Shown piece by piece: positions 180 through 62,473 of a stretch of DNA of 64,000 nt. The number at the start of each line of letters is the position of its first letter. The stretch's first letter is position 1. The stretch comes from a virus (taxonomy: Duplodnaviria; Heunggongvirae; Uroviricota; Caudoviricetes): the IMG/VR virus record IMGVR_UViG_3300009154_000029; one strand, given 5' to 3'. Both the position numbers and the translations under genes were made by a program. Below the pieces are notes generated by a model that was not told the origin of the DNA, searched no databases, and saw only the letters and a list, made by a program, of their open reading frames with translations.

Positions 180-479
180 ATGAATCAATTTGAATCAGAA
201 AAACTTCTTAATAAAGTAAGAAATGTTATTGGAATACCGGAATTTCAACCAATAGTTGAAATGTGTAAAGTATGGTTATCTGAAAGAGATGAATCCAAGT
301 ATGAAAAAACTAATAAAGAGTTATTAGAAAGGTATATGGATACATTATGGTTACCTATGGATTGGTCTGAAAAATTCACCTGTCGTTTTGTTTATAAAGT
401 TGATTTTATGGACAATACAGAGAAAGCAAGGTGTTGGATAAAGTGCGCGACTAATTACTTGAAAAACTCAAAAAAATAG
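180..479 (+). CDS. hypothetical protein
   Basis: ORF track; tightly packed + strand array. Confidence 0.4.
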   Translation: MNQFESEKLLNKVRNVIGIPEFQPIVEMCKVWLSERDESKYEKTNKELLERYMDTLWLPMDWSEKFTCRFVYKVDFMDNTEKARCWIKCATNYLKNSKK

Positions 480-485
480 AAAGTT

Positions 486-713
486 ATGAATAGAATAGTA
501 AACGTAAAACAACCAACATTTTTTATCAACTTAGATAACCCAACAGAAGTTAGTTATGAACCAATGGAAGGTAATTGGAAAACGATTACCGTACAAACAT
601 ACCTTTATGGGTTTCCTGAAATAAAAGACGATGAAATTCTTTATATCTATAAAGACTATAAAGGATATGGTAATCCTAGAGACTGTAGAGGTTATATATT
701 AAATAAAAAATAG
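486..713 (+). CDS. hypothetical protein
   Basis: ORF track; 6-nt spacing to neighbours. Confidence 0.4.
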   Translation: MNRIVNVKQPTFFINLDNPTEVSYEPMEGNWKTITVQTYLYGFPEIKDDEILYIYKDYKGYGNPRDCRGYILNKK

Positions 714-719
714 AAAGAT

Positions 720-2012
720 ATGAATAATATAGATAAAGCATACACAGACCTACTCCAAGACATTATAGACAACGGCTACACTAAAGAAGATCGTACTGGT
801 ACAGGAACTCTATCTCTATTTGGCTATCAGATTAGACATGATATGTCAGAGGGCTTTCCTCTACTCACTACCAAGAAGATGTACTTTAAAGGTATTGTAA
901 CAGAACTACTATGGTTCTTACGTGGTGATACATCAATAAAGTATTTGGTTGATAATAATTGCCATATTTGGGATGGAGACGCATGGAAGAATTATTGTAA
1001 TAAATGTAATGAAGATGAGTGGATGAAAGAAATCATTTTAGATTTACCGTTCCATAATAAAAGTTATGGTCTCTATTCACAAGAAGAGTTTATCAACAAA
1101 ATCAAAACCGATGATGAGTTTACTAAGAAGTGGGGTGAATTAGGACCAATTTATGGTAAGCAGTGGAGAAGTTGGCGTAGTAGTAGAAGTGTTGGTGATG
1201 ACACGTTTGTCGGTGGTTATTTTGTTAAAGATGAAAAAACTGACCAAATAGCAAACCTAATCTCTGAACTCAAAACAAATCCTGACTCAAGACGATTAAT
1301 GGTTAGTGCTTGGAATGTAGGTGAGTTGGATCAAATGGTACTTCCACCATGTCATTATGGATTTCAAGTTTATACGAGAGAGTTGAGTTTGGAAGAGAGG
1401 AGAACATTGCTTTTAAAAGATGACCCACATGGAATACAACCAACTACAGATTGGACAGAATCTCAATTAGTAGATTGTAAATTACAATTAGACGAGTTGA
1501 ATATCCCGACTAGAGCAATCTCATTGATGTGGAATCAACGCTCAGTAGATACATTCCTTGGTTTACCATTCAACATAGCATCTTATGGATTACTACTTGA
1601 AATCATAGCCAAAGAAGTTAATATGATCCCTGATGAATTGATTGGTAACTTGGGTGATGTTCATTTATACTCAAATCATATTGAACAGGCTAAGGAGCAG
1701 ATTGGTAGACCTTATACCCAGGAGGAAAGAATCCAGCTTTTAAAAGAAGCTATGGGTCAAGAGGCTTATGATTTAGCTGTTAGTGAATTGATGCCATTCG
1801 GAGGAGGATTAAGTGAGTATTATGATCATTATAAAATACCTCACTCAACCAGAGAATCTTTTCCTTTACCTAAGCTAGTTCATATGAAGACAGAAGCTTT
1901 CTATAAATCACTATCAGAAAACCAATCTTTGTATGGTCATATAGACCCGAAGGATTTTCAATTAGAAAACTACCAATCACATCCAGCAATTAAAGCTACA
2001 CTAAGTAATTAA
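720..2012 (+). CDS. thyA: thymidylate synthase (ThyA family) with large insertions
   Basis: N-terminal DRTGTGTLSLFG, LPPCH catalytic Cys context, C-terminal conserved ThyA blocks; 430 aa vs ~264 aa typical implies inserted segments. Confidence 0.85.
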   Translation: MNNIDKAYTDLLQDIIDNGYTKEDRTGTGTLSLFGYQIRHDMSEGFPLLTTKKMYFKGIVTELLWFLRGDTSIKYLVDNNCHIWDGDAWKNYCNKCNEDEWMKEIILDLPFHNKSYGLYSQEEFINKIKTDDEFTKKWGELGPIYGKQWRSWRSSRSVGDDTFVGGYFVKDEKTDQIANLISELKTNPDSRRLMVSAWNVGELDQMVLPPCHYGFQVYTRELSLEERRTLLLKDDPHGIQPTTDWTESQLVDCKLQLDELNIPTRAISLMWNQRSVDTFLGLPFNIASYGLLLEIIAKEVNMIPDELIGNLGDVHLYSNHIEQAKEQIGRPYTQEERIQLLKEAMGQEAYDLAVSELMPFGGGLSEYYDHYKIPHSTRESFPLPKLVHMKTEAFYKSLSENQSLYGHIDPKDFQLENYQSHPAIKATLSN

Positions 2013-23589: not shown

Positions 23590-24213
23590 ATGGAAAAAAG
23601 ACTAAAAGGTGAATTAAGTAAAAGCGAATCTGGCCGATGGGCAATCTGGTACTGGAAAGAGGATAGAAACTCCTTTGAAGGAGGTAAATATCCGGTTCAC
23701 CCAGAGATCCAAGAAAAAATGGAACAATTCGAATTTATGGATTATCTTAGCGATGGCATTGAGGTTGAATTTGTTATAGTTAAAGATGATAAAGTGTGCG
23801 AGGAGTTTGGAACTAACGAATATGCGAAAATTGTTCAACCGGAGGAAGAGGAGATTTCTGAATTTAAAAAAATAAGGGAATCTATTATCAGACAATTGAA
23901 AAATGTGATCTATGATAATGGAGACGTATCGGATGTTGGGAATGAGATAGGAATTGCAATAGCAAAACACCTTAACGAAAACCAAAACGTTGAAGACTTT
24001 ATGCATGGAGTAAGACATGGGGTTTCGTTAATTGACGGATCGCATTCTTCCGATTTCGAGCCTGTTGTTTCTGATGATTTTACAATAGGCCCAAATGGGG
24101 CATATGAATATCAAGACTGGGATCAAGTTTTCGAAAGCTACTTAGGTGCTCAAGATCTTCATTCTTTCCTAGAGTGGCTGAAACAAAATTACGATTCTCC
24201 GGTTATAAAATAG
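23590..24213 (+). CDS. hypothetical acidic protein
   Basis: ORF track. Confidence 0.4.
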   Translation: MEKRLKGELSKSESGRWAIWYWKEDRNSFEGGKYPVHPEIQEKMEQFEFMDYLSDGIEVEFVIVKDDKVCEEFGTNEYAKIVQPEEEEISEFKKIRESIIRQLKNVIYDNGDVSDVGNEIGIAIAKHLNENQNVEDFMHGVRHGVSLIDGSHSSDFEPVVSDDFTIGPNGAYEYQDWDQVFESYLGAQDLHSFLEWLKQNYDSPVIK

Positions 24214-24371
24214 TCAGGTGGCGGAATGGATAGACGCATACTTGTTGGTTTTAAGGTTAAAACATGATTTGCAAACATGGGGTAGTTCCACGCATAGGGG
24301 ATTAGTGCACATGAGTCCTTCTGTAATAAAGAAAAATACCCACCATACAGGTTCGAATCCTGTCCTGACTA
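24212..24371 (+). tRNA. tRNA-like gene with ~70-nt excess in central region (intron-containing or degenerate type II tRNA, Leu-like 5' half)
   Basis: perfect 7-bp acceptor AGTCAGG/CCTGACT, U8, D-arm GCG-GAATGGATAGA-CGC like tRNA-Leu, T-arm ACAGG-TTCGAAT-CCTGT, discriminator A; 160 nt total. Confidence 0.45.
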
Positions 24372-24446: not shown

Positions 24447-24541
24447 AGTCAGGTGGCGGAATGGTAGACGCTATCGTTACAAAGGTAGAATAGTAAATAG
24501 TTTACGCTCTATTCTTACAGGTTCGAATCCTGTCTTGGCTA
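24447..24541 (+). tRNA. tRNA-like gene, type II (long extra arm), anticodon arm not confidently foldable
   Basis: same 5' 25 nt and T-arm as upstream copy; acceptor AGTCAGG/CTTGGCT with two G-U; 7-bp AGAATAG/CTATTCT hairpin in the variable region; 95 nt. Confidence 0.45.
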
Positions 24542-39526: not shown

Positions 39527-40000
39527 ATGAAACACATTGAAATATACGAAGCGTTTTCACAATCTCTAAACACTGGGATCGTTCCTATTACTCAAGTTTT
39601 GGCTAATCCCAAGATGATAGACTTTTCCGTTCTTCCTGATAAGAAAACCGTGATCATTTCACAATCTGATGGAAGAGGAGGGGTAGTTCCAGGATCTTCA
39701 TATAAATACTCAGCACAAGGGAGAAAGGGAAGCGGAATTCTTTCGGTTAAAATCGGATTGGAGATAAACTCGATCGTTAAAAAACCAGACGGATCGATGG
39801 AGGTAAAAGTTATACCAACATCCTCACTTGCTAGAAAGTCATCACAATCAAAAATAGGACCTGATGGATGGATAACAGCTCCTGTTGGTGTTGACAAGGT
39901 CGATTCTTTAATTAAAGATCTAGTTAAATCTAGGGGTAAATCTGGAACATTAGAAACTGAAAATCTAAGTGTTGATTTTTCATTAATCGGTCCTCAATAA
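39527..40000 (+). CDS. hypothetical protein (MKHIEIYEAF)
   Basis: ORF track. Confidence 0.4.
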   Translation: MKHIEIYEAFSQSLNTGIVPITQVLANPKMIDFSVLPDKKTVIISQSDGRGGVVPGSSYKYSAQGRKGSGILSVKIGLEINSIVKKPDGSMEVKVIPTSSLARKSSQSKIGPDGWITAPVGVDKVDSLIKDLVKSRGKSGTLETENLSVDFSLIGPQ

Positions 40001-48392: not shown

Positions 48393-49025
48393 ATGGTAAT
48401 AAAATTTTTAACATTTCTCCCCGATGGCCACTACGGTTATCCGGAACCAATATTAACCGACAACTTTACAATTCCAGATCGTGATGAACTTTTAGCCAGA
48501 TATGCAGAAGCAGATTGTAGCGCATATATAATGGGGGAAGACGATAACAGGGGTACAGAAGGGCCGTTTGATGACTTTCAAAACTATGAACTTTATAAGC
48601 ACGGTTTCATGATAATTGGAGAGAATCTGAATTATCTTAACCGCTATTTGTATGAGGCGATTAACAACTATCTGTCAGTGGCTTTAGGTGGAGGTGAAGG
48701 AGGTTATGAAGCTAACGGTAAAGATTTTTATGATCTATTCGATGCATATAGTCCTTTCAAAGGATTTATTGTACCGATAACTTTCGGCGATGAAGCTAAA
48801 GGAGACACATTAGACTCTGAACACGCATCGTTAGAAAACATAGATCCAAATTCCATTAAAATAGCTGTAGATGTCCTAGTTGAAAGATATAAAGACCATC
48901 CTTTAGAAATTTATCAGCTGGATGGTGTTCCTGAACTTAAGAAAATGGTTTTAGATAGATTGTCAGAGCTTGGAGTAAAAGACTTTGGAGCTTTGGGTAA
49001 GATTTTAGGGAAAGGTCTATTGTAA
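48393..49025 (+). CDS. acidic protein with the family C-terminal tail (no LRR repeats)
   Basis: ends LEIYQLDGVPELKKMVLDRLSELGVKDFGALGKILGKGLL. Confidence 0.5.
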   Translation: MVIKFLTFLPDGHYGYPEPILTDNFTIPDRDELLARYAEADCSAYIMGEDDNRGTEGPFDDFQNYELYKHGFMIIGENLNYLNRYLYEAINNYLSVALGGGEGGYEANGKDFYDLFDAYSPFKGFIVPITFGDEAKGDTLDSEHASLENIDPNSIKIAVDVLVERYKDHPLEIYQLDGVPELKKMVLDRLSELGVKDFGALGKILGKGLL

Positions 49026-49544
49026 AACTAAAAATCGTTCAATCAACCACTGGGGGATATGATCTATCTCATATAGAGAATTTATGGTAAACGGTGTTTT
49101 TTCTCCCCATTCATAAAATTTATCATCCAGATATGACGGAGCAGTAAAAGCTCTTCCCGTATAAAGAAAGTCAAAATCTATTCCATCAACTTTCGCTTTC
49201 TTGTATTTACTTAGCTCTATATTATTAGAATTCCTGAAATAAATGTGCAGACCAGAGTTAAGGCTCCTCTCATAGAACAAAGAGTCTAACGAAACCCCAA
49301 GTGAGCTAAGTATCCCCTTAAATTTCACAACAGAGTTTCTTGTGCCTTCCACATCTAGACAAACTAGATTGCTTACCCTTAGATTAATCGAAAGAAAATT
49401 AGAGTCTTTAATAATATCTGGAGATTCAGAACCGTTCACCAGATTTGAATGCCTGATGGTTTTCATAGATCCTCTCTGAGCCTCGCAAACTGAGACCTTT
49501 GTTAAAACACCTAAAGCATTCCATCTTTTAATATAATCTATCAT
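49017..49544 (-). CDS. PrimPol-like protein, copy 2 (inverted paralog of 46904..47425)
   Basis: CLDVEGT, NSGLHIYFRN, GIDFDFLYTGRAFTAPS. Confidence 0.45.
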   Translation of the reverse strand: MIDYIKRWNALGVLTKVSVCEAQRGSMKTIRHSNLVNGSESPDIIKDSNFLSINLRVSNLVCLDVEGTRNSVVKFKGILSSLGVSLDSLFYERSLNSGLHIYFRNSNNIELSKYKKAKVDGIDFDFLYTGRAFTAPSYLDDKFYEWGEKTPFTINSLYEIDHIPQWLIERFLVLQ

Positions 49545-49584
49545 GGCAAAGGAATATATATGTGAATCAAAATTACCGATGAAT

Positions 49585-50532
49585 ATGAAAAGAATTAAGA
49601 GGTTTGAGTTATTCTTAGAGAACGAAGAAAAGAAGACTGGCTATAAGCTTTTTTATTTTAAAACAGAAGCAAATGAAGACTATGGTTATCCAATCCTTTC
49701 TGAAGTCGACGAGGACGATTTATATAGGAGGAATGGTTCATGGAAATCCCCAAATAGCATTGATGAGCTTCATGACGAGTATGTTAACGCAAACAATGGA
49801 CCAATCCATGGCTCAGATGGGTGGGAAAGTCTCAATTATAGCATACAGAAGTATCAAGATGCAAAAGACCAAAATGACGAGGAAGAGATGGCAGAATGTC
49901 TTGAAAAAATTGAAGATTGTCTTTTAGATTTTGGACTTGACGATGCTGATGCAGAAAGAGTTGCGAATGAGCCAGATTATTATGATGAAATGACTACAAA
50001 GTATATTAATGACACATTTCAACAATGGAAAAATGCATATTACCCATTCGACTCATCTTGGAATTTTCTGTGCATAGATCTAAATGGTGGGGGAGAATAC
50101 TCTAATAGATGGGATGACAACTCTATAGATGGAAATCTTTGGACTACTATCGCTTCATTGATTGGCTCTGCCGTTATCCCATTAGCTTATTCGAATGATA
50201 GTGATTATTTTCATATATTAACTTCGGATAACGAATTCATAAAAACAAAATTCACAAAGTCAAATAGTCCAGAAAAGATTGCATCAGGATTTATAGCTGA
50301 TCCAGAATCTCATAAAATGGTAAGTGATATGATCTCAAAAATGGAAAATACAGGGAAAAAGAATTTTCTACCAAAAGCACCTTTAGATATACTTGATGCT
50401 TATTTTAAGGAGAATCCCTTAGATCTGTATATGATAGCTGACCATCCACAACTTAAGGATGAGGTTCTAAAAAGAACAGGCCTAAAGGACTTTTCAAGAT
50501 TAGGACAAACTATAGATAAAGGAATACTTTAA
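49585..50532 (+). CDS. acidic protein with family C-terminal tail; start at MKRIKRFELFLE
   Basis: internal ATG 49585 gives CTS-like N-terminus; tail YFKENPLDLYMIADHPQLKDEVLKRTGLKDFSRLGQTIDKGIL. Confidence 0.5.
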   Translation: MKRIKRFELFLENEEKKTGYKLFYFKTEANEDYGYPILSEVDEDDLYRRNGSWKSPNSIDELHDEYVNANNGPIHGSDGWESLNYSIQKYQDAKDQNDEEEMAECLEKIEDCLLDFGLDDADAERVANEPDYYDEMTTKYINDTFQQWKNAYYPFDSSWNFLCIDLNGGGEYSNRWDDNSIDGNLWTTIASLIGSAVIPLAYSNDSDYFHILTSDNEFIKTKFTKSNSPEKIASGFIADPESHKMVSDMISKMENTGKKNFLPKAPLDILDAYFKENPLDLYMIADHPQLKDEVLKRTGLKDFSRLGQTIDKGIL

Positions 50533-50589
50533 TCTACGTGGTCCTATTTAAATCAGGATATATAAAGTGCAAAATAATACTCGTAAAAT

Positions 50590-52257
50590 TTGAAGCTCCC
50601 TAAGAAATATCTCACATCTAATCCCAATATCATGAAAAGGGAAATAAAAAAACATGGCGATAAGAAGGATGATGATCCCTCTGCATACAAGGACTGGGAT
50701 GCTGACTATAAAAGTGGAAAGGCAGGAAAGGGTAAAGCAGTTCCAACCAAAAAGAGCAAGTACACAAAAAAGTACAAAGAGATGTTTGGAGAGAACGAGA
50801 GTGCGGGGAAAGACAGAATAATGGACTTCGAAACGTTCACAGTTGAAAACTTGGATGAAGCCTCTAAGATGAGTAAGGATAGTCCAGTTTATAAATCACT
50901 TAAAAAAAAGGCAAAAAAATCAGGATTCCCTTTATCGATTCTTAGAGAAGTGTGGAGCAGAGGGTATGCTGCTTGGAAGAATGGACACGTCCCAGGAACA
51001 ACACCTCAGCAGTGGGCAATGGCTAGAGTCAATTCTTTTATTGTTGGGGGCAGAACCACAGAAATGAGCGATAAGGCTCTTTATAAGAGAGCTAAGAAAT
51101 CAAAACGTGTTAATGAGAGTCAGGAACACCAAGAACTTACTGAGGAGCAAATTGCATGGCTTAATGGAAAAGTTAAAAAGGATTCAACATGGACATTGAA
51201 TCCACAAACAGGACTTGTTGATATTAACGGTAGCTTTAGTTGCGCTGTCTATTTTCCTACGCCAAAAAACAAGGCACTTCATGGAATTAGATTCGGAAAT
51301 GTGACTGGATCTTTTGACTGTAGCTCTTGTTACCTGCTATCCCTTGAAGGAACCCCCCGTACTGTTGGTGTTGATTTCGAGTGCTCGAATAACCCATTAG
51401 ATTCATTGGAAGGTGGACCATTAGAAGTTGGTAGAGATTTTAAATTTTATGCGACAAAGGTCACGTCTTTGGAAGGAGCACCAAAAATTGTTGGTCGTGA
51501 TTTCATATGCACAAGTAGTAAGTTGGTTACACTTAAAGGTGCACCCCAAACTATTATGGGAAAATTTGAGTGTAAAGGAAACGAGTTAGAGACTTTAGAA
51601 GGAGGACCTGAAATAGTAAATGGAACTTTTGATTGCGATGGGAATAAGCTTCAGTCGCTAAAAGGCGGACCTAGAGTGGTTGGAACGTATTACCAGTGTT
51701 GTAGTAACGATCTTCTCTCTTTAGAAGGAGCACCCGAAAAAGTTGGACATTTCTTCTGTAGAGGAAATAAAAATCTAACTTCTCTAGAAGGAGCTTCGAA
51801 TATGGAAACTGACGGTTATTTTAATTGTAGCGGAAATAATTTAACATCTTTAAAGGGATCGCCCAAAAAAGTTGGATGGTATTTTGATTGCACTAATAAT
51901 CCTCTTGAGACCCTCGAGGGGGTAACAATGGAGATAGGAGGTAAGTTTCGTTGTGATTCATTTGCTACTATTGACGGACAATGGAATGTTGGGGGTTGGC
52001 TGAATGTGTTAGAAAGAAAAACTGAAAGCACTAGAAACAACACAGAAGATCCATTACAAATAATAAATCTCGAGGATTCTAAAAAGCTAATTCTAACCAT
52101 ACTGTCTGACGATGTTGTTGATCAATATTTCAAAGAGAATCCATTTGAAATCGGTATTCTAGACAATTTACCTGAATTTAAGGAGAAGGTACTTAAGAGA
52201 ACTGGGCTTAGGGACCTATCTATTTTAGGAAAGGCACTTAGCAAAGGTATGCTTTAA
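50590..52257 (+). CDS. LRR-like repeat protein, conserved-C-tail family (555 aa, ~10 repeats)
   Basis: 22-aa repeats LxSLEGAPxxVGxxFxCSxNxL; tail YFKENPFEIGILDNLPEFKEKVLKRTGLRDLSILGKALSKGML. Confidence 0.6.
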   Translation: MKLPKKYLTSNPNIMKREIKKHGDKKDDDPSAYKDWDADYKSGKAGKGKAVPTKKSKYTKKYKEMFGENESAGKDRIMDFETFTVENLDEASKMSKDSPVYKSLKKKAKKSGFPLSILREVWSRGYAAWKNGHVPGTTPQQWAMARVNSFIVGGRTTEMSDKALYKRAKKSKRVNESQEHQELTEEQIAWLNGKVKKDSTWTLNPQTGLVDINGSFSCAVYFPTPKNKALHGIRFGNVTGSFDCSSCYLLSLEGTPRTVGVDFECSNNPLDSLEGGPLEVGRDFKFYATKVTSLEGAPKIVGRDFICTSSKLVTLKGAPQTIMGKFECKGNELETLEGGPEIVNGTFDCDGNKLQSLKGGPRVVGTYYQCCSNDLLSLEGAPEKVGHFFCRGNKNLTSLEGASNMETDGYFNCSGNNLTSLKGSPKKVGWYFDCTNNPLETLEGVTMEIGGKFRCDSFATIDGQWNVGGWLNVLERKTESTRNNTEDPLQIINLEDSKKLILTILSDDVVDQYFKENPFEIGILDNLPEFKEKVLKRTGLRDLSILGKALSKGML

Positions 52258-52265
52258 AGATAAGA

Positions 52266-53234
52266 ATGAGAAACTTAAAAACATATAAATTATTCGAGAA
52301 ATCACAAGAGATCACACCAGAGCAGAGGGAGTGGCTGGACACCTGCTCAACGGCAGGGAATAGACATTCAAAATGGTCAATAAATCCACTAGGAATGATT
52401 GATGTTGATCATGATTTTTATGCACATGGATCTAATGGAACAAGGTTTTCATCCAATCTAAGAAAGAATCTCACAGGATTTCTTGGATTAAAATTCGGAA
52501 AGGTTTGGGGGGGTTTCTTTGTTAATGACACTGCAATTACTACATTGGAGGGAAGTCCATCTGATGTTGGAGGATCCTTCCACTGTGAGCAGAACAGTTT
52601 GGAATCACTTGAAGGAGCTCCTGAAAGGGTGGGAAGAAATTTCGTTTGTAGTGGGAATACAACACTAAAATCTTTAAAAGGAGCACCTCGGGAGATTGGA
52701 TATGAACACACTTACGACGAGAATGATCTATATCCATCAGTATTTGATTGCTCACTTTGTGATTTAAAGAATCTAGAGGGAAGTCCAGAGTATATACCTG
52801 GTGATTTCAAATGCGAGGGAAATCCACTAGTATCTCTTAAGGGAGCACCTAGAGTTATAGAAAGAAACTTTTATACCAGAACCGGATTAGGTGAACTTAA
52901 ATCACTATACGGAGCTCCTGAAAAAGTAGGGGGTAGCTTTATATGTAATGACTTCACTTTGTATAATGGAACATGGGGAACCTCAGAATCATACACAAAG
53001 CTCTTTTTAGGAGTTGAAGACGATGACTGTAAAATATACGCTAGTTCAGAGAGAATGAAATTGTTGATGACACCTTATGTTACTGACGATTTAGTCGACT
53101 CATTCTTTAAGGAGAATCCACTAGAGATTGGTCTTCTAGACGGTTATCCAGAAATTAAAGCTGAAGTTCTCAAAAGAACAGGACTAAGAGACATGTCATC
53201 ATTAGGACAAGCTCTAAGAAAAAAAATGATATAA
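52266..53234 (+). CDS. LRR-like repeat protein, conserved-C-tail family (MRNLKTYKLFEK)
   Basis: repeats plus tail FFKENPLEIGLLDGYPEIKAEVLKRTGLRDMSSLGQALRKKMI. Confidence 0.6.
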   Translation: MRNLKTYKLFEKSQEITPEQREWLDTCSTAGNRHSKWSINPLGMIDVDHDFYAHGSNGTRFSSNLRKNLTGFLGLKFGKVWGGFFVNDTAITTLEGSPSDVGGSFHCEQNSLESLEGAPERVGRNFVCSGNTTLKSLKGAPREIGYEHTYDENDLYPSVFDCSLCDLKNLEGSPEYIPGDFKCEGNPLVSLKGAPRVIERNFYTRTGLGELKSLYGAPEKVGGSFICNDFTLYNGTWGTSESYTKLFLGVEDDDCKIYASSERMKLLMTPYVTDDLVDSFFKENPLEIGLLDGYPEIKAEVLKRTGLRDMSSLGQALRKKMI

Positions 53235-54610
53235 TGGGAAAACACATTTTAAGCGCAGCAGAATTCTTTCTGAATGAGGGGACAATCAACGATCCATCAG
53301 ATTGGCCAGATAACTGGAAAGACATGCCTGAATGGACACAACTCCAGGAGCTTGGATTTACTGACGCCACCACGCCGCAAATGGCCAAGAACGGTAGCAT
53401 TCTTCTCATGAACTTTGCCATTCCACACTATCCAGGAGGTATAACACTTCAACAATCAGGGTACATTAGAAATAAGTTGGCATCTTCAGGATTCATTAAA
53501 AATTATCGTGATAGCTTTACACTTAAGCAAATGTTTGACTACCTTATAGAGAAATTCACTAAGCTCTCAAAAAAAGGAATAGAAAGAAACCCAGAGCATG
53601 GTGATCTTCCAGATCCAACAGTTGCATTCTTAAATAAGGTGGTTAATGGATCTTGGAGTTTTAACCAGGAAACTCAAAGAATTGACGTTGAAGGTAATGT
53701 TAACATGTCCATGATCAAATCTATACCCGAGGGGATCAGATTCGGAAACGTTTTGGTTCATTTCGTTTGTAATAATATGGGACTTACCAATTTAGATATT
53801 GCTCCGATATATGTTGGTGGATATTTTGACTGCTCGAGTAATAAACTCACCTCGCTAGAGGGAGGACCTGAAAGAGTGGACGGAAATTATGACTGCTCAC
53901 TCAATAAGCTCACAACATTAAGGGGTGCTCCAGAATATTGTGCACACTCATTTGTCTGCAGTTCTAATAAATTAGAAACGCTAGAGGGATGTCCGAAAGA
54001 AGTGGGTAGGAGATTTGATTGTTCAAAAAATCCTCTGAAATCCCTTATTGGCTCTCCTGAGATGAATCCTGAAAGCCAATTTTTTGCAGATCGAACCCTC
54101 ATTAACAATCTAAGTGGAATGCCTGAAGTTGGTGAGGTGACAATTGAGGCATGTAAAAATCTCAAATCTTTAAGGGATTTACCCCAAAGTGTTTATTCCA
54201 TATATCAGGGGGGTATGTCAATCTTTATTAATAAAGGAGGGAATAGATCAGGTGGCAATTTTTCAAGATCATATATTCTTGAAGCAATAGCACAGCTTAT
54301 TTCTTATAGGAATGAAGCTATCACCAGTGATCGTTATTCTAATACTCAGATCCCAGATATAGAAAGAGGCGGATACACCATACACACTAATATATACAAT
54401 TGGAATTCTACACCAAAGGAAAGGGAAAGGGGATTTACTCTTTTTATGACACTTCTAGACAATGACTTCTTAGATCAATACTTCAAAGAAAATCCTATGG
54501 ATATCAATATATTAAATGCATTGCCTGATGTTAAAGCCGGGGTATTACAAAGAACTGGTATAAAAGACTACTCCAAACTAGCAGCAGCTCTAAGAAGCGG
54601 TATGGTTTAA
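53234..54610 (+). CDS. LRR-like repeat protein, conserved-C-tail family (paralog of 36589..37731)
   Basis: shared N-domain, repeats CSSNKLTSLEGGPERVDGNYD etc., tail YFKENPMDINILNALPDVKAGVLQRTGIKDYSKLAAALRSGMV. Confidence 0.6.
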   Translation: MGKHILSAAEFFLNEGTINDPSDWPDNWKDMPEWTQLQELGFTDATTPQMAKNGSILLMNFAIPHYPGGITLQQSGYIRNKLASSGFIKNYRDSFTLKQMFDYLIEKFTKLSKKGIERNPEHGDLPDPTVAFLNKVVNGSWSFNQETQRIDVEGNVNMSMIKSIPEGIRFGNVLVHFVCNNMGLTNLDIAPIYVGGYFDCSSNKLTSLEGGPERVDGNYDCSLNKLTTLRGAPEYCAHSFVCSSNKLETLEGCPKEVGRRFDCSKNPLKSLIGSPEMNPESQFFADRTLINNLSGMPEVGEVTIEACKNLKSLRDLPQSVYSIYQGGMSIFINKGGNRSGGNFSRSYILEAIAQLISYRNEAITSDRYSNTQIPDIERGGYTIHTNIYNWNSTPKERERGFTLFMTLLDNDFLDQYFKENPMDINILNALPDVKAGVLQRTGIKDYSKLAAALRSGMV

Positions 54611-54643: not shown

Positions 54644-55222
54644 ATGAAGCATATCCATGACTACCATATATTCGAGAGCACTACCAGCAAGAATCTTGTC
54701 TCCCCCTCACTCTCACCGATTACAACCTACTTCGAGACCGCACAGGGATCCAAGTATCTTCTCTCACAGAAGGGAGAGACCAAGAGGTGGAAAAGCTCAC
54801 ACGCCAACACAGGAGGGGAAGATCAAGGGCTAAAGTCCTGGTATCCCAACTCCATGTTTGTACCTGAGGATAGTCTAGATGCTATGATGGCTTACGAGCA
54901 CTTATTAGATAAAGGATACAGAATATCACTCTCCAAGACCCAGAACGGCAAGCAGGTCTGGATCATTCTTAAAGATGGTGCGTGGACACCAGCTCTCTAC
55001 TCCGACGCATTCCCAACATATAGCAGACTGAACCCAGATAAAGCATCTAAGCCACTAGCTTTCACTAGCTACTCAACGCCATCTCTAGGCATGATGGCTG
55101 TGGAGTACAAACAGGAATCTAATGGACTGATCAGAAGCTTCCATCCTGGTTCTCCAGTCTCCAAGGTGCTACCTATAGATCAGGCTGATCCTAAGGATCT
55201 GTTCTACTTTGGCATTAAATAA
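54644..55222 (+). CDS. hypothetical protein in GC-richer island (MKHIHDYHIFE)
   Basis: ORF track; composition shift. Confidence 0.45.
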   Translation: MKHIHDYHIFESTTSKNLVSPSLSPITTYFETAQGSKYLLSQKGETKRWKSSHANTGGEDQGLKSWYPNSMFVPEDSLDAMMAYEHLLDKGYRISLSKTQNGKQVWIILKDGAWTPALYSDAFPTYSRLNPDKASKPLAFTSYSTPSLGMMAVEYKQESNGLIRSFHPGSPVSKVLPIDQADPKDLFYFGIK

Positions 55223-55296
55223 TTCAGGGTCTAAGAAAAGCCACTATCTAATCTTATATTCACAATTCATCCGAGCTTATTCCGTATATTTGGATT

Positions 55297-55755
55297 ATGA
55301 TTAAATCTAAATCAAAGGGGGAAGATCTCGATAATAACTCCTATTTATGGGAACTCCTTAGGGAGGAGTATCTAGAGGAGCTCTACTCAAGGGTAAGCTC
55401 ATCCGATCTCTTCCTGCCCAAAAGATTTCTCTGGGAGCACGTTATCTGTTTAGTTTCTTATCGCGATCTTCCATCTAGTGTGAACGTGGACAAAGCCATC
55501 TACGAGAAGAAGGTGGAGCACTATCGACAGAAGGTCACAGGTCAGCCTCAGCACTCATTTAATGTATTTATGGCCGAAATAGCCGATAGAATGAATGGAT
55601 ATGACGGGTACGTTCTCGCCGAATGGAATATTGGAATGGAATCAGTGGAGGGATATATGAAGAAATTTGGGGTGGATAGGGACACGGCTTTGAAGATGAA
55701 GAGTCTATACGAGGACTCACCCCTTATAGAGATGGAATGGAAGCAAGTCAAATAG
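55297..55755 (+). CDS. hypothetical protein, paralog of 60185..60610
   Basis: shared EGYM..GVDR..ALK.KSLY....E.EW..V C-terminal blocks. Confidence 0.45.
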   Translation: MIKSKSKGEDLDNNSYLWELLREEYLEELYSRVSSSDLFLPKRFLWEHVICLVSYRDLPSSVNVDKAIYEKKVEHYRQKVTGQPQHSFNVFMAEIADRMNGYDGYVLAEWNIGMESVEGYMKKFGVDRDTALKMKSLYEDSPLIEMEWKQVK

Positions 55756-55863
55756 AACAATCTGCTAAATGATCTGCCCGACTTAAAGGCGGGGGTTCTG
55801 AAGAGAACTGGTCTTAAAGACATGAGCGCTCTAGTCAAAGGTCTAAAAGGGGGAATGTTTTAA
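55756..55863 (+). pseudogene. orphan copy of the family C-terminal tail (NNLLNDLPDLKAGVLKRTGLKDMSALVKGLKGGMF), in frame directly after the TAG stop of 55297..55755
   Basis: manual translation of codons from 55756; no start codon; 35 codons then TAA at 55861-55863. Confidence 0.5.
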
Positions 55864-55874
55864 TTAACCTCTTA

Positions 55875-58160
55875 TCAATTTTTTACAAATCTGTAAATTT
55901 TTGAACCGCTTGTTAGACTTAACAAAAGGATATATGTTCCTGACGATATCACAGAGGTATTTACAACCACTATATTACTCCCCTTAGATAGACGTATTTT
56001 ATTTCTGTATACTATTCTTCCCATCGCATCTATAACATTCACATTTGAGAATTGAGCGGATTCTGAAAAAAAATTTATTCTGTATACATCTTTAACAGGA
56101 TTAGGGGATCCCTCATTAGAGGAAGATCTTACTAGAACTGTAGCAGTTGAAATCTTTGTTAATAAAGCTGATCCATAGGCAGGGATTGTAATGGTTCCAA
56201 TATAGTTATTACCATATACATCTCTGTATGTACCATCCAATGTAGTGACAACAGGGGCATTAGTAGTATTATAAAAAGGAATAAATGTTGTTGTAGGAAT
56301 AGCTACACTTGCGGCATCCCCAGCTATAAATGTTTTCCAGGCAGTCAGTTTCAAACTTGCGGGATCTACAAATGTACCACCAGAGGTAAGATGGTAATAG
56401 TAGTCAAATGGATTGGTTACGTCATCTCTGTAGTAGTTGCTATCAAATACAGCAATCAATCTCATATCATTCTGGATAGTGATTGTTGTAGGAGTATTTA
56501 ACGCACCGTTCCAGTAAAAGAAGTTTTTTTGAGAGGTGGTTGATGGATATATGACATTTTTCTTAACCGTATTGTTTCTCACCTGAGATGTGTCGCTAGG
56601 AAGCCTGTTCATAGAAATACAATCTGTACTGTTATACACCATGTTGGTACGAATATTAACTCTCTTACTATTATTAAGAAATATTCCCTCTCCATTTGTA
56701 GAAGAAACTGAATTACTTGTAATGTTTACATCACTAGCTCCATCTATATAAATACCCCTAGCATCTCCGGTAGTTGTGCTAGTACCAGCTGCTGCTCCCA
56801 CTGTAGTGATAATGATATTATTAGAAATTGTTCTGTTTGTCTTGCCTAAACCTGTGTAAGTGTAAATAGCTCCACCGTCATTCTTCTCACTATTAGTATT
56901 AGTGATATAGTTTTTGTCTACAAGCACATTACCACCCTTCCAATCAATACCATTGAAGCCAATACTATCTATTCTGTTATTAGTAATTGTTACCCCAAGC
57001 CCATCTACAAACACAGCAGCACCTTGTCCATCATCACCTGATCTACCCATTCCGGGGATAAGTCCACACTTAGAAATGGTATTAAACCTAACAGTAACAG
57101 CCCTATCTGCTCTCCCCTGAAGACGAACCCCAGTGTTAAGGCAGTTCTTTATTGTGCTGGACTCAACCAATGCATTCGCCACATACCACATCTTTACAGC
57201 ATCAAAGTTGTACTCAAATTCGCAATTAGATACGGTGATGTTGCTAGCATCCTTTGCTATTAAAGCAGCATAACCAGCTCCGGTAAATCTAAGGTAACTA
57301 AACTTAATATTACTCCTTGCTGTTCTCCCACCGTATCCACCGCAGTGAACCAATGTATCTTGTGCACTCACTTTAATGGTATAACTAGCTGGATTGAGAT
57401 TGCCAAAGTACACTTGTAATGTTTTCCCTGAATTGTTCCAATACCACTCCCCAAAACTGTCAAGAGTCCTGATGTCATCCTGAAAAAAGAACCCGTAATT
57501 AGCTTTCCCGGGATAGGTGTTAGTAACACCTGACCAAATATCACCACTAGCTGGAGCTGGGTTTCTATAGCTCACCTTTGTACCAACTTGGCTTTTAACT
57601 CTTCCTGTATCTAAAATCCATCTCTCTTTCCTTACAATAATCTGAGCTCCTGTCCAGTTAGTTGTGCTTAACTGACTGCTAGTCAAACTGGTATCTCCAG
57701 CTGAAAGTGTACCCACTGACTGATAGGTTAGATATCCCTTATTTGTTGCTGTGTAATTAGGGAATCTACCCATTCCTGTCAGAACACCATTAACCGTTAC
57801 TATCGAAGCTCTACTCGGATCACTGGTTATAGGGTTACTACTGTAGATGCCCACCCCTGAAAGAGTCCATCCTGTAACAGTTACAAATCCGGTAATCTCA
57901 GGAAGGCTTCCTGTACCATAAGCATTAAACACTAGGTTGTCTCTATTGGGAATAAGCTTTCCCTGAAACACATCCCCTCGTTTAAAAGAAATGGTGTCAC
58001 CAGAAGCAAAGGTGGCTGTGTTCACCTTATTTAGTGACTGCCACGGAGCGCCCAATGTGCCAGCATTAGCATCATTTCCCGTGCTTGATGATACGTAATA
58101 ATTCTTTGCCTGTGCTCCTAGGGACGACAAAATGATAAGGTAAAAAATCAGGGCTCTCAT
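55875..58160 (-). CDS. secreted right-handed beta-helix protein with T9SS C-terminal sorting domain
   Basis: signal peptide MRALIFYLIILSSLGAQA, parallel beta-helix-like repeats, C-terminal ~80 aa with Por-secretion CTD pattern. Confidence 0.6.
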   Translation of the reverse strand: MRALIFYLIILSSLGAQAKNYYVSSSTGNDANAGTLGAPWQSLNKVNTATFASGDTISFKRGDVFQGKLIPNRDNLVFNAYGTGSLPEITGFVTVTGWTLSGVGIYSSNPITSDPSRASIVTVNGVLTGMGRFPNYTATNKGYLTYQSVGTLSAGDTSLTSSQLSTTNWTGAQIIVRKERWILDTGRVKSQVGTKVSYRNPAPASGDIWSGVTNTYPGKANYGFFFQDDIRTLDSFGEWYWNNSGKTLQVYFGNLNPASYTIKVSAQDTLVHCGGYGGRTARSNIKFSYLRFTGAGYAALIAKDASNITVSNCEFEYNFDAVKMWYVANALVESSTIKNCLNTGVRLQGRADRAVTVRFNTISKCGLIPGMGRSGDDGQGAAVFVDGLGVTITNNRIDSIGFNGIDWKGGNVLVDKNYITNTNSEKNDGGAIYTYTGLGKTNRTISNNIIITTVGAAAGTSTTTGDARGIYIDGASDVNITSNSVSSTNGEGIFLNNSKRVNIRTNMVYNSTDCISMNRLPSDTSQVRNNTVKKNVIYPSTTSQKNFFYWNGALNTPTTITIQNDMRLIAVFDSNYYRDDVTNPFDYYYHLTSGGTFVDPASLKLTAWKTFIAGDAASVAIPTTTFIPFYNTTNAPVVTTLDGTYRDVYGNNYIGTITIPAYGSALLTKISTATVLVRSSSNEGSPNPVKDVYRINFFSESAQFSNVNVIDAMGRIVYRNKIRLSKGSNIVVVNTSVISSGTYILLLSLTSGSKIYRFVKN

Positions 58161-60184: not shown

Positions 60185-60610
60185 ATGGGTTATATTTGGA
60201 TTATGAACCAAGACGAGATCAAAGAGCTAGAAGCCCAAACACTAAAGCAATATCTGAAGGAGCTAGAGACCCTGGTGTCCATGCCCGAACTCTACAAATC
60301 AAACTACCCCTTATGGGACAAGATGGTGCATAACAGACTCAGGCATCCCACCGATGAGAAGATAGACTGGGCTCTGATCTACCAGTACGAGGCGGTAATG
60401 GACACACCCCAGCACATGCTCGATCTGTTTGTCTCAGTGGAGAGGGATGATTGGGGGGTTTCATCGTTTCCCATAGGGGAGATACGCTGGGACATGGACA
60501 CCGAAGGGTATATGAGGGTCTATGGAGTGGACCGACCCATGGCTCTCAAGATCAAGAGTCTATACCGAAAGCAGGTGTTCATAGAGCTCGAGTGGGTCAA
60601 AGTCCACTAA
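60185..60610 (+). CDS. hypothetical protein in GC-rich island, paralog of 55297..55755
   Basis: alignment of C-terminal blocks; GC-rich codon usage. Confidence 0.45.
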   Translation: MGYIWIMNQDEIKELEAQTLKQYLKELETLVSMPELYKSNYPLWDKMVHNRLRHPTDEKIDWALIYQYEAVMDTPQHMLDLFVSVERDDWGVSSFPIGEIRWDMDTEGYMRVYGVDRPMALKIKSLYRKQVFIELEWVKVH

Positions 60611-61041: not shown

Positions 61042-61067
61042 AAGCCCACACAAAACTCCAATCATAC

Positions 61068-61093
61068 AGTCCAGGTTATTCTGGACTTTTTTA
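61068..61093 (+). terminator. rho-independent terminator
   Basis: AGTCCAG-GTTATT-CTGGACT hairpin followed by TTTTTT. Confidence 0.55.
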
Positions 61094-61099
61094 TGTCCC

Positions 61100-61272
61100 C
61101 TCATATAGTATAGTAGTAAGGTAGTATGCGAAGGGGAGCCTACCCCTACCTAGTGCCAGCACCTAGTCCAGCATATATCATGAGGAGAAGCTTGGATAGG
61201 CCTCCCCACATAGTATGATGGTAACATAGTATGCAAGGGGAAGACCGGAACCCCTAGTGGACACGCGTGGGA
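61100..61272. repeat. two ~65-bp imperfect direct repeats (~105-bp spacing), each with a GGGG..CCCC hairpin, in GC-rich non-coding DNA
   Basis: CATATAGTAT.GTAAGGTAGTATGCGAAGGGGAGCCTACCCCTACCTAGTG vs CACATAGTATGATGGTAACATAGTATGCAAGGGGAAGACCGGAACCCCTAGTGG. Confidence 0.55.
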
Positions 61273-61622
61273 GGTGCTAGGAAGAGCCTAGATGAGGGAC
61301 GGCTAAGTGGGTGTATATGGGGAATCTGAGGGAGCTCTGGCCCCTGATGGAAACCCCTCTGCAGGACCGAGCCACCACCCAGGGTGGGTACACGGTGATT
61401 TCTGTGATGCCGCGTTTGCCTAGTTTCCCAGCCCGGGCCGAGTCCACCGCCGACGGTTCGCCGGGACGTCTGGGAAATCCTGGAATTCTGTGTGATTTTG
61501 TGGAGATTTGTGTGAATCCCCGGTCGGGCTCACCCGGTCCCACAGATTCCCCCGCTAATCTCGCCCCGCCAGGCTGCCTTAGATCCCTATAGGAGCTCGC
61601 CTCGCCCCGGATATATAGGTGT

Positions 61623-62249: not shown

Positions 62250-62353
62250 GCGCAGGTTGGAGTCTACTCTCCCGGCTCCTTTTGAGAGCCACGCCCGTGA
62301 CCGGTGTCCCCTAGTGCCACAATGTAAATGTATGGCATTTCCCCGAGAAGAAA

Positions 62354-62473
62354 AAAATATTCCGGTGGTATTTTGATATATAAGACAGAATAAAAAAAAT
62401 GAGTATGAACAAAATATTCCGGTGGTATTTTGATATATAAGACAGAATAAAAAAAATGAGTATGAACAAAATA
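62354..62473. repeat. perfect 57-bp tandem duplication (2.1 copies) spanning the leader and first 12 nt of the downstream gene
   Basis: aaaatattccggtggtattttgatatataagacagaataaaaaaaatgagtatgaac at 62354 and again at 62411. Confidence 0.8.

Follow-up and report, generated by a model that had tools for sequence, protein, structure and literature searches.

A tail-domain fragment in frame behind a TAG stop, probably a recombination scar in a large uncultured freshwater phage

We analysed a 64-kb stretch of phage-like DNA (the window) in which a complete 152-aa gene ends in TAG and is followed, in the same frame, by 35 further codons. We propose that these 35 codons are a recombination scar in the hypervariable gene array of a large uncultured freshwater phage, a pseudogene stub without a function of its own (probability roughly 0.88). 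The original prediction had left two readings side by side, a recombination scar that joined a tail fragment behind an unrelated gene and programmed amber read-through. Comparison with relatives supports the former, and the latter failed every test that was run, namely conservation, TAG usage, tRNA content and completeness of the module.

The source is a large uncultured phage-like genome, and gene content, including a T9SS domain, points to a host that is probably a member of the Bacteroidota. Contigs identical to it, or nearly so, are found in freshwater-lake metagenomes and reach 147 kb. The window encodes a thymidylate synthase, a GMP-reductase-like protein, an Fpg glycosylase, a ClpB-like ATPase, a lysin with PG_binding_1 and GH19-like parts, and a homolog of the anti-Thoeris protein Tad6. 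The features discussed below are collected in Table 1.

Table 1. Position, strand and main properties of the features discussed (window coordinates)
Feature	Position	Strand	Properties
tRNA-like gene	24212-24371	+	Rfam tRNA, 32.8 bits; 88 nt at anticodon/variable region
tRNA-like gene	24447-24541	+	Rfam tRNA, 33.9 bits; 36 nt at anticodon/variable region
Fifth intact tail member, 380 aa	36589..37731	-	Identified by motif scan, alignment and profile
Sixth, diverged tail member	48393..49025		Found by tail-profile search of the window
Tandem array of four intact tail genes	49543..54610	+	329, 555/541, 322 and 458 aa; ends ..YFKENP..VLKRTG..
Intact tail member	49543..50532	+	Tail at extreme C-terminus
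Intact tail member	50590..52257	+	Tail at extreme C-terminus
Intact tail member	52266..53234	+	Tail at extreme C-terminus
Intact tail member	53234..54610	+	Tail at extreme C-terminus
Upstream neighbour, complete 192-aa gene	54644..55222	+	N-terminal head MKHIHDYHIFES; no tail
5' flank/start region common to the 152-aa and 141-aa genes	55271..55300	+	CCGAGyTTAT..GTATATTTGGATTATGA; family D10, 83% over 30 nt
152-aa gene	55297..55755	+	ATG start; TAG stop at 55753-55755; complete
Tail stub B	55756..55863	+	35 codons (55756-55860) and TAA at 55861-55863; in frame with the 152-aa ORF
Convergent neighbour, 761-aa beta-helix protein	55875..58160	-	T9SS C-terminal sorting domain; stop 12 nt from the stub TAA
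Paralog of the 152-aa gene	60185..60610	+	Likely true start 60203 (135 aa); TAA; no tail fragment behind

The fragment, the tail family and the 152-aa gene

Read directly from the sequence, the arrangement is as first described: the 152-aa ORF, which carries neither head motif nor tail, closes with TAG, and the next 35 codons read NNLLNDLPDLKAGVLKRTGLKDMSALVKGLKGGMF before TAA. The fragment, here stub B, has a B-type tail (..GLKDMSALVKGLKGGMF). Searched among 1,688 six-frame window segments, it matches a profile of five intact tails with 49.3 bits (E 2.6e-14), far beyond chance, and it keeps ten of the ten alignment columns that are invariant across the stub and the five full-length members, which bears out the claim that it copies the conserved C-terminal tail. 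The alignment spans positions 27-59 of the 60-position profile and ends one residue before the TAA; these 33 positions are about half of the tail domain. The FKENP part is missing, as had been noticed, together with the invariant D13 and D16. A single in-frame ATG lies 12 codons before the end, and the only in-frame sequence upstream is the unrelated 152-aa ORF. Without FKENP, a start or a body of its own, stub B is therefore a fragment and not a member gene.

Several measures bear on the history of the fragment. In comparisons with each paralog tail, synonymous differences have reached saturation (pS 0.6-0.76) but non-synonymous ones have not (pN 0.28-0.40); intact paralogs give the same values among themselves, so for most of its history stub B was a coding sequence. 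It is 56-65% identical in nucleotides to each of the in-window tails, and we rejected a recent gene-conversion copy of an in-window tail on that low identity. The GC content of stub B (45%) resembles that of the 152-aa gene (44%) and the 192-aa gene (46%), as against 31-38% in the other tails, and this composition suggests that its parent gene came from the same higher-GC block as those two genes. The fragment is unusually clean, with all invariant tail residues kept and no frameshift. Recent truncation explains all these features, but continuing selection would fit the clean state too. TAG and stub are identical in four assemblies of the window lineage, and because of this identity selection within the lineage is unmeasurable.

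A motif scan of all six frames places the same C-terminal tail on five intact window ORFs. Their 60-aa tails were used to build the profile, and the module follows the pattern ..D..D.YFKENP..P..K..VLKRTG..D.S.L... A word-indexed search with this profile returned 2 proteins only, and an exhaustive search was therefore needed; run over 1.84 billion representative proteins, it yielded 154 clusters of tail-bearing representatives, in which the tail always sits at the extreme C-terminus. These proteins range from 39 to 855 aa, with bodies as diverse as SLEGAP-type repeats and unrelated sequence, and one of them (P0100) is a P0020-like protein minus its body, with head and tail only. An AlphaFold model of the 60-aa tail has five short helices (pLDDT 83), of which stub B would cover roughly the last 2.5, and the model gave no fold match in the PDB. 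Neither Pfam nor PHROGs contains a family for the tail itself; among the tail-family members, the only matches are to DUF5824 and, weakly, to PHROG families in the body of the 555/541-aa member, and marginal PHROG matches in two others. When the phage genome collection was searched by tblastn with a family member, only its body repeats matched, in jumbo and megaphages.

The block as a whole is a hypervariable one of tandem genes with a common C-terminal module of ~60 aa, often combined with an N-terminal head. This head, MKHIKTFxLFE(S), is present on ~60% of the full-length tail-family representatives and, more widely, on many proteins that are otherwise unrelated, some of them tail-less. Window ORFs that bear it start at 39527, 47950 (minus strand), 49585, 52266, 54644, 58860, 60655 and 62462, and it occurs within P0005-P0152 as well.

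The 152-aa gene is a self-contained unit, with its own 5' flank of ~30-70 nt and its natural stop at the TAG codon. Its protein is 32% identical (E 4e-16) to the 141-aa product of 60185..60610 and ends at the equivalent residue, and both the paralogy and the matching ends were correctly predicted. At the nucleotide level, similarity between the two genes weakens further upstream of the common 30 nt and is nil past the stops. The 30-nt region thus marks the left part of the duplicated gene unit, and the stop codon is its right edge. Further paralogs are found in L008 (three copies) and L015 (two). Eight of eight family copies with a read 3' end, taken from the window's 152-aa and 141-aa genes, their L001 orthologs, the two in L015 and the three in L008, terminate no more than two codons from one common position, with C-terminal ends such as ..EPEWVKVG* and ..IELEWVKVH*. 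The family is small, unrelated to the tail family and scattered through the hypervariable block. A tblastn scan of the loci found no tail match beside the other 152-aa paralogs, the 152-aa, 141-aa and 192-aa proteins gave no body homology in BLASTP against 148 tail-bearing representatives, and no Pfam or PHROG family matched these three proteins.

The 192-aa gene upstream has homologs in 57 clusters, most of them 190-194 aa long, and gave no tblastn match in the phage genome collection. We considered it as the severed 5' half of the gene from which the stub derives and rejected this, as it is complete and widely conserved at ~192 aa and its body occurs on no tail-bearing protein. On the other side, the convergent gene encodes, within a phage-like genome, a 761-aa right-handed beta-helix protein that has both a signal peptide and a T9SS sorting domain (Por_Secre_tail); its identity in two other lineages is 93%, with a dN/dS of 0.16 against L001. 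Scans of viral_contigs with the 152-aa, 192-aa and 761-aa proteins gave no match, and a metagenome scan with the 761-aa protein returned two short contigs, both ending at the site.

Two features further downstream are recorded here as observations in their own right. The interval 61042-61622, between the Pterin_4a gene and a 208-aa gene, is poor in ORFs and stands at 53% GC, against 35% for the genome. Within it lie a pair of 47-nt direct repeats (61092-61138 and 61197-61243) and, at long range, inverted repeats (61319-33/61538-52 and 61047-60/61501-14); Rfam gave no match. Since the whole block at 60-62.3 kb is GC-rich, its composition suggests a foreign origin. A 231/233-aa gene has two candidate starts, since its ATG and A-rich leader lie within a 57-nt tandem duplication (98% identical) at 62350-62463.

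The site in related lineages

The closest diverged relatives, L001-L003, share the gene order of the window and 94-99% of its nucleotides where collinear, and dS per gene is 0-0.2. The 152-aa protein is found in databases in two lineages, one sequence identical to the window (P0001) and one 93% identical (P0002); the L001-L003 ortholog, with the same 93% identity, has a dN/dS of about 0.5. In L001-L003, the gene stops with TAA at the codon where the window has TAG. Homology between the window and L001 is lost after the second base of this stop codon and is regained at 55840, with 1,875 nt of L001 (8459-10333) in place of 85 nt of the window (55755-55839). The L001 insert starts with a different tail stub, stub A (..GLRRTGVKDMSSLAKTIRKGIL*), which lies in the +1 frame with stops before it and in which only the last 21 profile positions are recognisable (30 bits). 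A 103-aa ORF and then a 421-aa gene on the other strand come after it.

The last ~8 codons of stub B (GLKGGIF*) are present in L001 beside the 761-aa gene, 1.9 kb away and outside any gene. This remnant implies that stub B is older than the lineage split and that it was not maintained in the sister lineage. Stub A is only ~60% identical to the window stub despite a dS of 0-0.2, and the two are therefore not orthologous. The same figure, set against a neutral divergence of <=0.2, led us to reject a deletion between L001's two direct tail stubs as the origin of the window state. At this site, a third lineage (L007) carries unrelated DNA, and the sequence beyond the stop of the 761-aa gene differs in the three lineages. 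Judging from these alignments, the stop of the 152-aa gene stays at the same codon whatever comes after it.

A neighbouring site in L001 offers a parallel. The 322-aa tail gene is absent there through a 968-nt deletion between the microhomologies TAAAGA and CTAAGA, and a five-codon tail remnant of it, RKKMI*, stands at L001 5850-5875, in frame right behind the TAA of the 541-aa gene. It is a second, independent tail stub behind a stop codon, which implies that such stubs are a recurrent by-product of gene-sized rearrangements in this block. Close relatives differ more generally by gene-sized insertions, deletions and replacements with breakpoints at or inside gene ends. Stub B has the properties of a gene remnant: it is truncated, its edges coincide with rearrangement breakpoints (the stop codon and a point inside the stub), and it is dispensable in the L001 lineage.

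We propose the following course of events. A tail-family gene would once have stood convergent to the 761-aa gene, and a rearrangement would have replaced or deleted everything upstream of its codon -35, bringing the stop of the 152-aa unit up against the tail remnant. The common frame of the 152-aa ORF and the stub would then be a 1-in-3 accident, and the stub frame would be open only because it was recently coding. Later, in the L001 lineage, the 85 nt made up of the G of TAG and the first 28 stub codons would have been swapped for the 1.9-kb segment, which would have brought another, older tail stub and recreated the stop as TAA. A window-like ancestor of L001 is the more parsimonious order, since a single replacement then gives L001; this polarity is a parsimony argument that uses no outgroup. 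L001 also has the derived state at the nearby site of the 322-aa gene.

Stop-codon usage, tRNA content and competing explanations

A rival reading is amber read-through, programmed or leaky, by which some ribosomes would append the 35-residue tail to the 152-aa protein. In its favour, the stub frame is open, shared with the gene and well preserved. Phages with TAG recoding exist (10.1101/2021.08.26.457843; PMC9523058), and the window contains two non-canonical tRNA-like genes of unclear decoding. We nevertheless regard read-through as very unlikely. The original prediction had asked whether TAG is under-used as a stop. In the window it ranks second among the terminators and is not depleted, ending 21 of 93 ORFs (about 23%) against 66 for TAA and 6 for TGA; these counts are approximate, being taken from greedy non-overlapping ATG-ORFs of which a few are probably spurious. 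Treating TAG as sense improves coding coverage no more than reassigning the other stops does, and neither stop counts nor coding coverage gives a signal of genome-wide recoding. In the Pterin_4a gene, TAG lies five residues past the end of the Pfam model, with the same TAG in L001 and TAA in the L015 homolog, which identifies TAG as an ordinary stop here. A separate run of three consecutive ORFs in one frame with TAG between them (99 aa, 75 aa and a 430-aa ThyA; 180-2012, plus strand) has near-identical junctions, AAAAAATAGAAAG(T/A)TATG. Read-through is not needed there, because ThyA matches its Pfam model from residue 6; the protein appears to carry an insertion, with 348 residues over 245 model positions.

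The tRNA-like genes, which had been described as adjacent to the site, lie ~31 kb away. They stand in tandem, with near-identical acceptor and Leu-like D and T arms, and both exceed the 13-15 nt expected at the anticodon/variable region. Folding by hand and with ViennaRNA gave no canonical anticodon arm; no CTA occurs in the anticodon region, and the CUA anticodon that the original prediction had proposed to look for is found at no plausible position. Default ARAGORN misses both genes, and its intron-tolerant mode is inconsistent (Pro-tgg or Leu-tag). ARAGORN and Rfam found no tRNA(CUA) in the 64-kb window and ~24 kb of further sequence (L009, L012 and L013), which makes ~88 kb out of a genome that measures 147 kb or more; Rfam found no other tRNA in the flanks. 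A lone ARAGORN call of tRNA-Phe inside an ORF was unconfirmed by Rfam.

The remaining tests concern the extension itself. Stop and in-frame extension are not conserved, as the nearest diverged relatives combine TAA with a different, out-of-frame stub, and what read-through would add is an incomplete module. RNA folding around the stop is unremarkable (z -0.36 and -0.19), with no stimulatory structure. A narrower version, in which basal or host-dependent UAG read-through in this one lineage equips a small share of the 152-aa molecules with the partial tail, is just as improbable. If true, the half-module might serve as a C-terminal sorting or interaction tag, and a recombination accident would have made a new read-through isoform on which selection is now starting.

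Three other explanations were weighed against a recombination scar. A recent nonsense mutation in a true fusion gene, made up of the 152-aa domain and the tail, would account for both parts lying in one frame with their junction exactly at the stop; but the near-constant stop position in the eight 152-aa family copies read, the occurrence of a 152-aa body with a tail in 0 of 148 tail-bearing representatives, the lack of the first 26 tail positions and the unrelated sequence behind the same stop codon in L001 make it exceedingly unlikely. Of the 119 nt that separate the convergent 152-aa and 761-aa genes, 108 belong to the stub, and its DNA might have been kept for a non-coding role as their 3' UTR or terminator. 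We consider this improbable too, given that the interval holds no terminator-like hairpin, folds no better than shuffled sequence on either strand and has given way to other sequence in L001 and L007. In a metagenome assembly such as the window, a chimeric join or a base error could have made the TAG, but TAG and stub are the same in four assemblies from different samples (L004, L005, L006 and L012), which to all intents rules an artefact out.

Related systems and meaning for the phage

The closest known analogue for the context is found in the T-even internal-protein loci, which are polymorphic and hold diverse genes with only a capsid targeting sequence (CTS) in common (PMC3012670, PMC9026906). 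Like those loci, the block described here is a tandem array of diverse accessory genes with short conserved termini in common, and, as with cassette exchange, close relatives gain, lose and replace whole genes with breakpoints at gene ends. Unlike the T-even CTS, which is N-terminal, the conserved handle of the stub is a C-terminal module of ~60 aa, and the rearrangements here run through microhomology or unknown joins, with no demonstrated CTS-mediated recombination. A T4-type CTS comprises ~10 N-terminal residues and ends in a prohead-protease site (L/I-x-E). The T4 CTS is MKTYQEFIAE (PMC8442874); the head of the window family resembles it, by eye only, and ends in an L-x-E motif. By this analogy, the head may be a putative packaging or processing signal.

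Recoding of TAG to glutamine (code 15) with suppressor tRNAs is found in crAss-like and other large phages (10.1101/2021.08.26.457843; PMC9523058). The present phage resembles them in being large, in its probable Bacteroidota host and in having an in-frame TAG followed by recognisable coding sequence. It differs in that the case is single, where those genomes have many in-frame TAGs, in that TAG is a common true terminator, in that no tRNA(CUA) was found in the ~88 kb searched and in that relatives do not conserve the arrangement. In phage Q-beta, the A1 read-through protein is made at a leaky UGA and carries a conserved, essential extension. Here, too, an in-frame extension right after the stop could in principle add a C-terminal module to a minority of products, but the stop is UAG, the domain is truncated, and in the sister lineage the extension is either missing or out of frame.

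The fragment is most likely a real but ordinary gene remnant, and as a read-through candidate it therefore has no importance. As a marker its value is modest: stub B, the second stub in L001 and the three configurations beside the 761-aa gene together document a block of a large freshwater phage that turns over by gene-sized replacements with edges at gene ends. A wider value may lie in the family from which the stub derives, an unannotated family of ~150 clusters (at 50% identity) that combines a conserved head, a variable body and a conserved five-helix tail.
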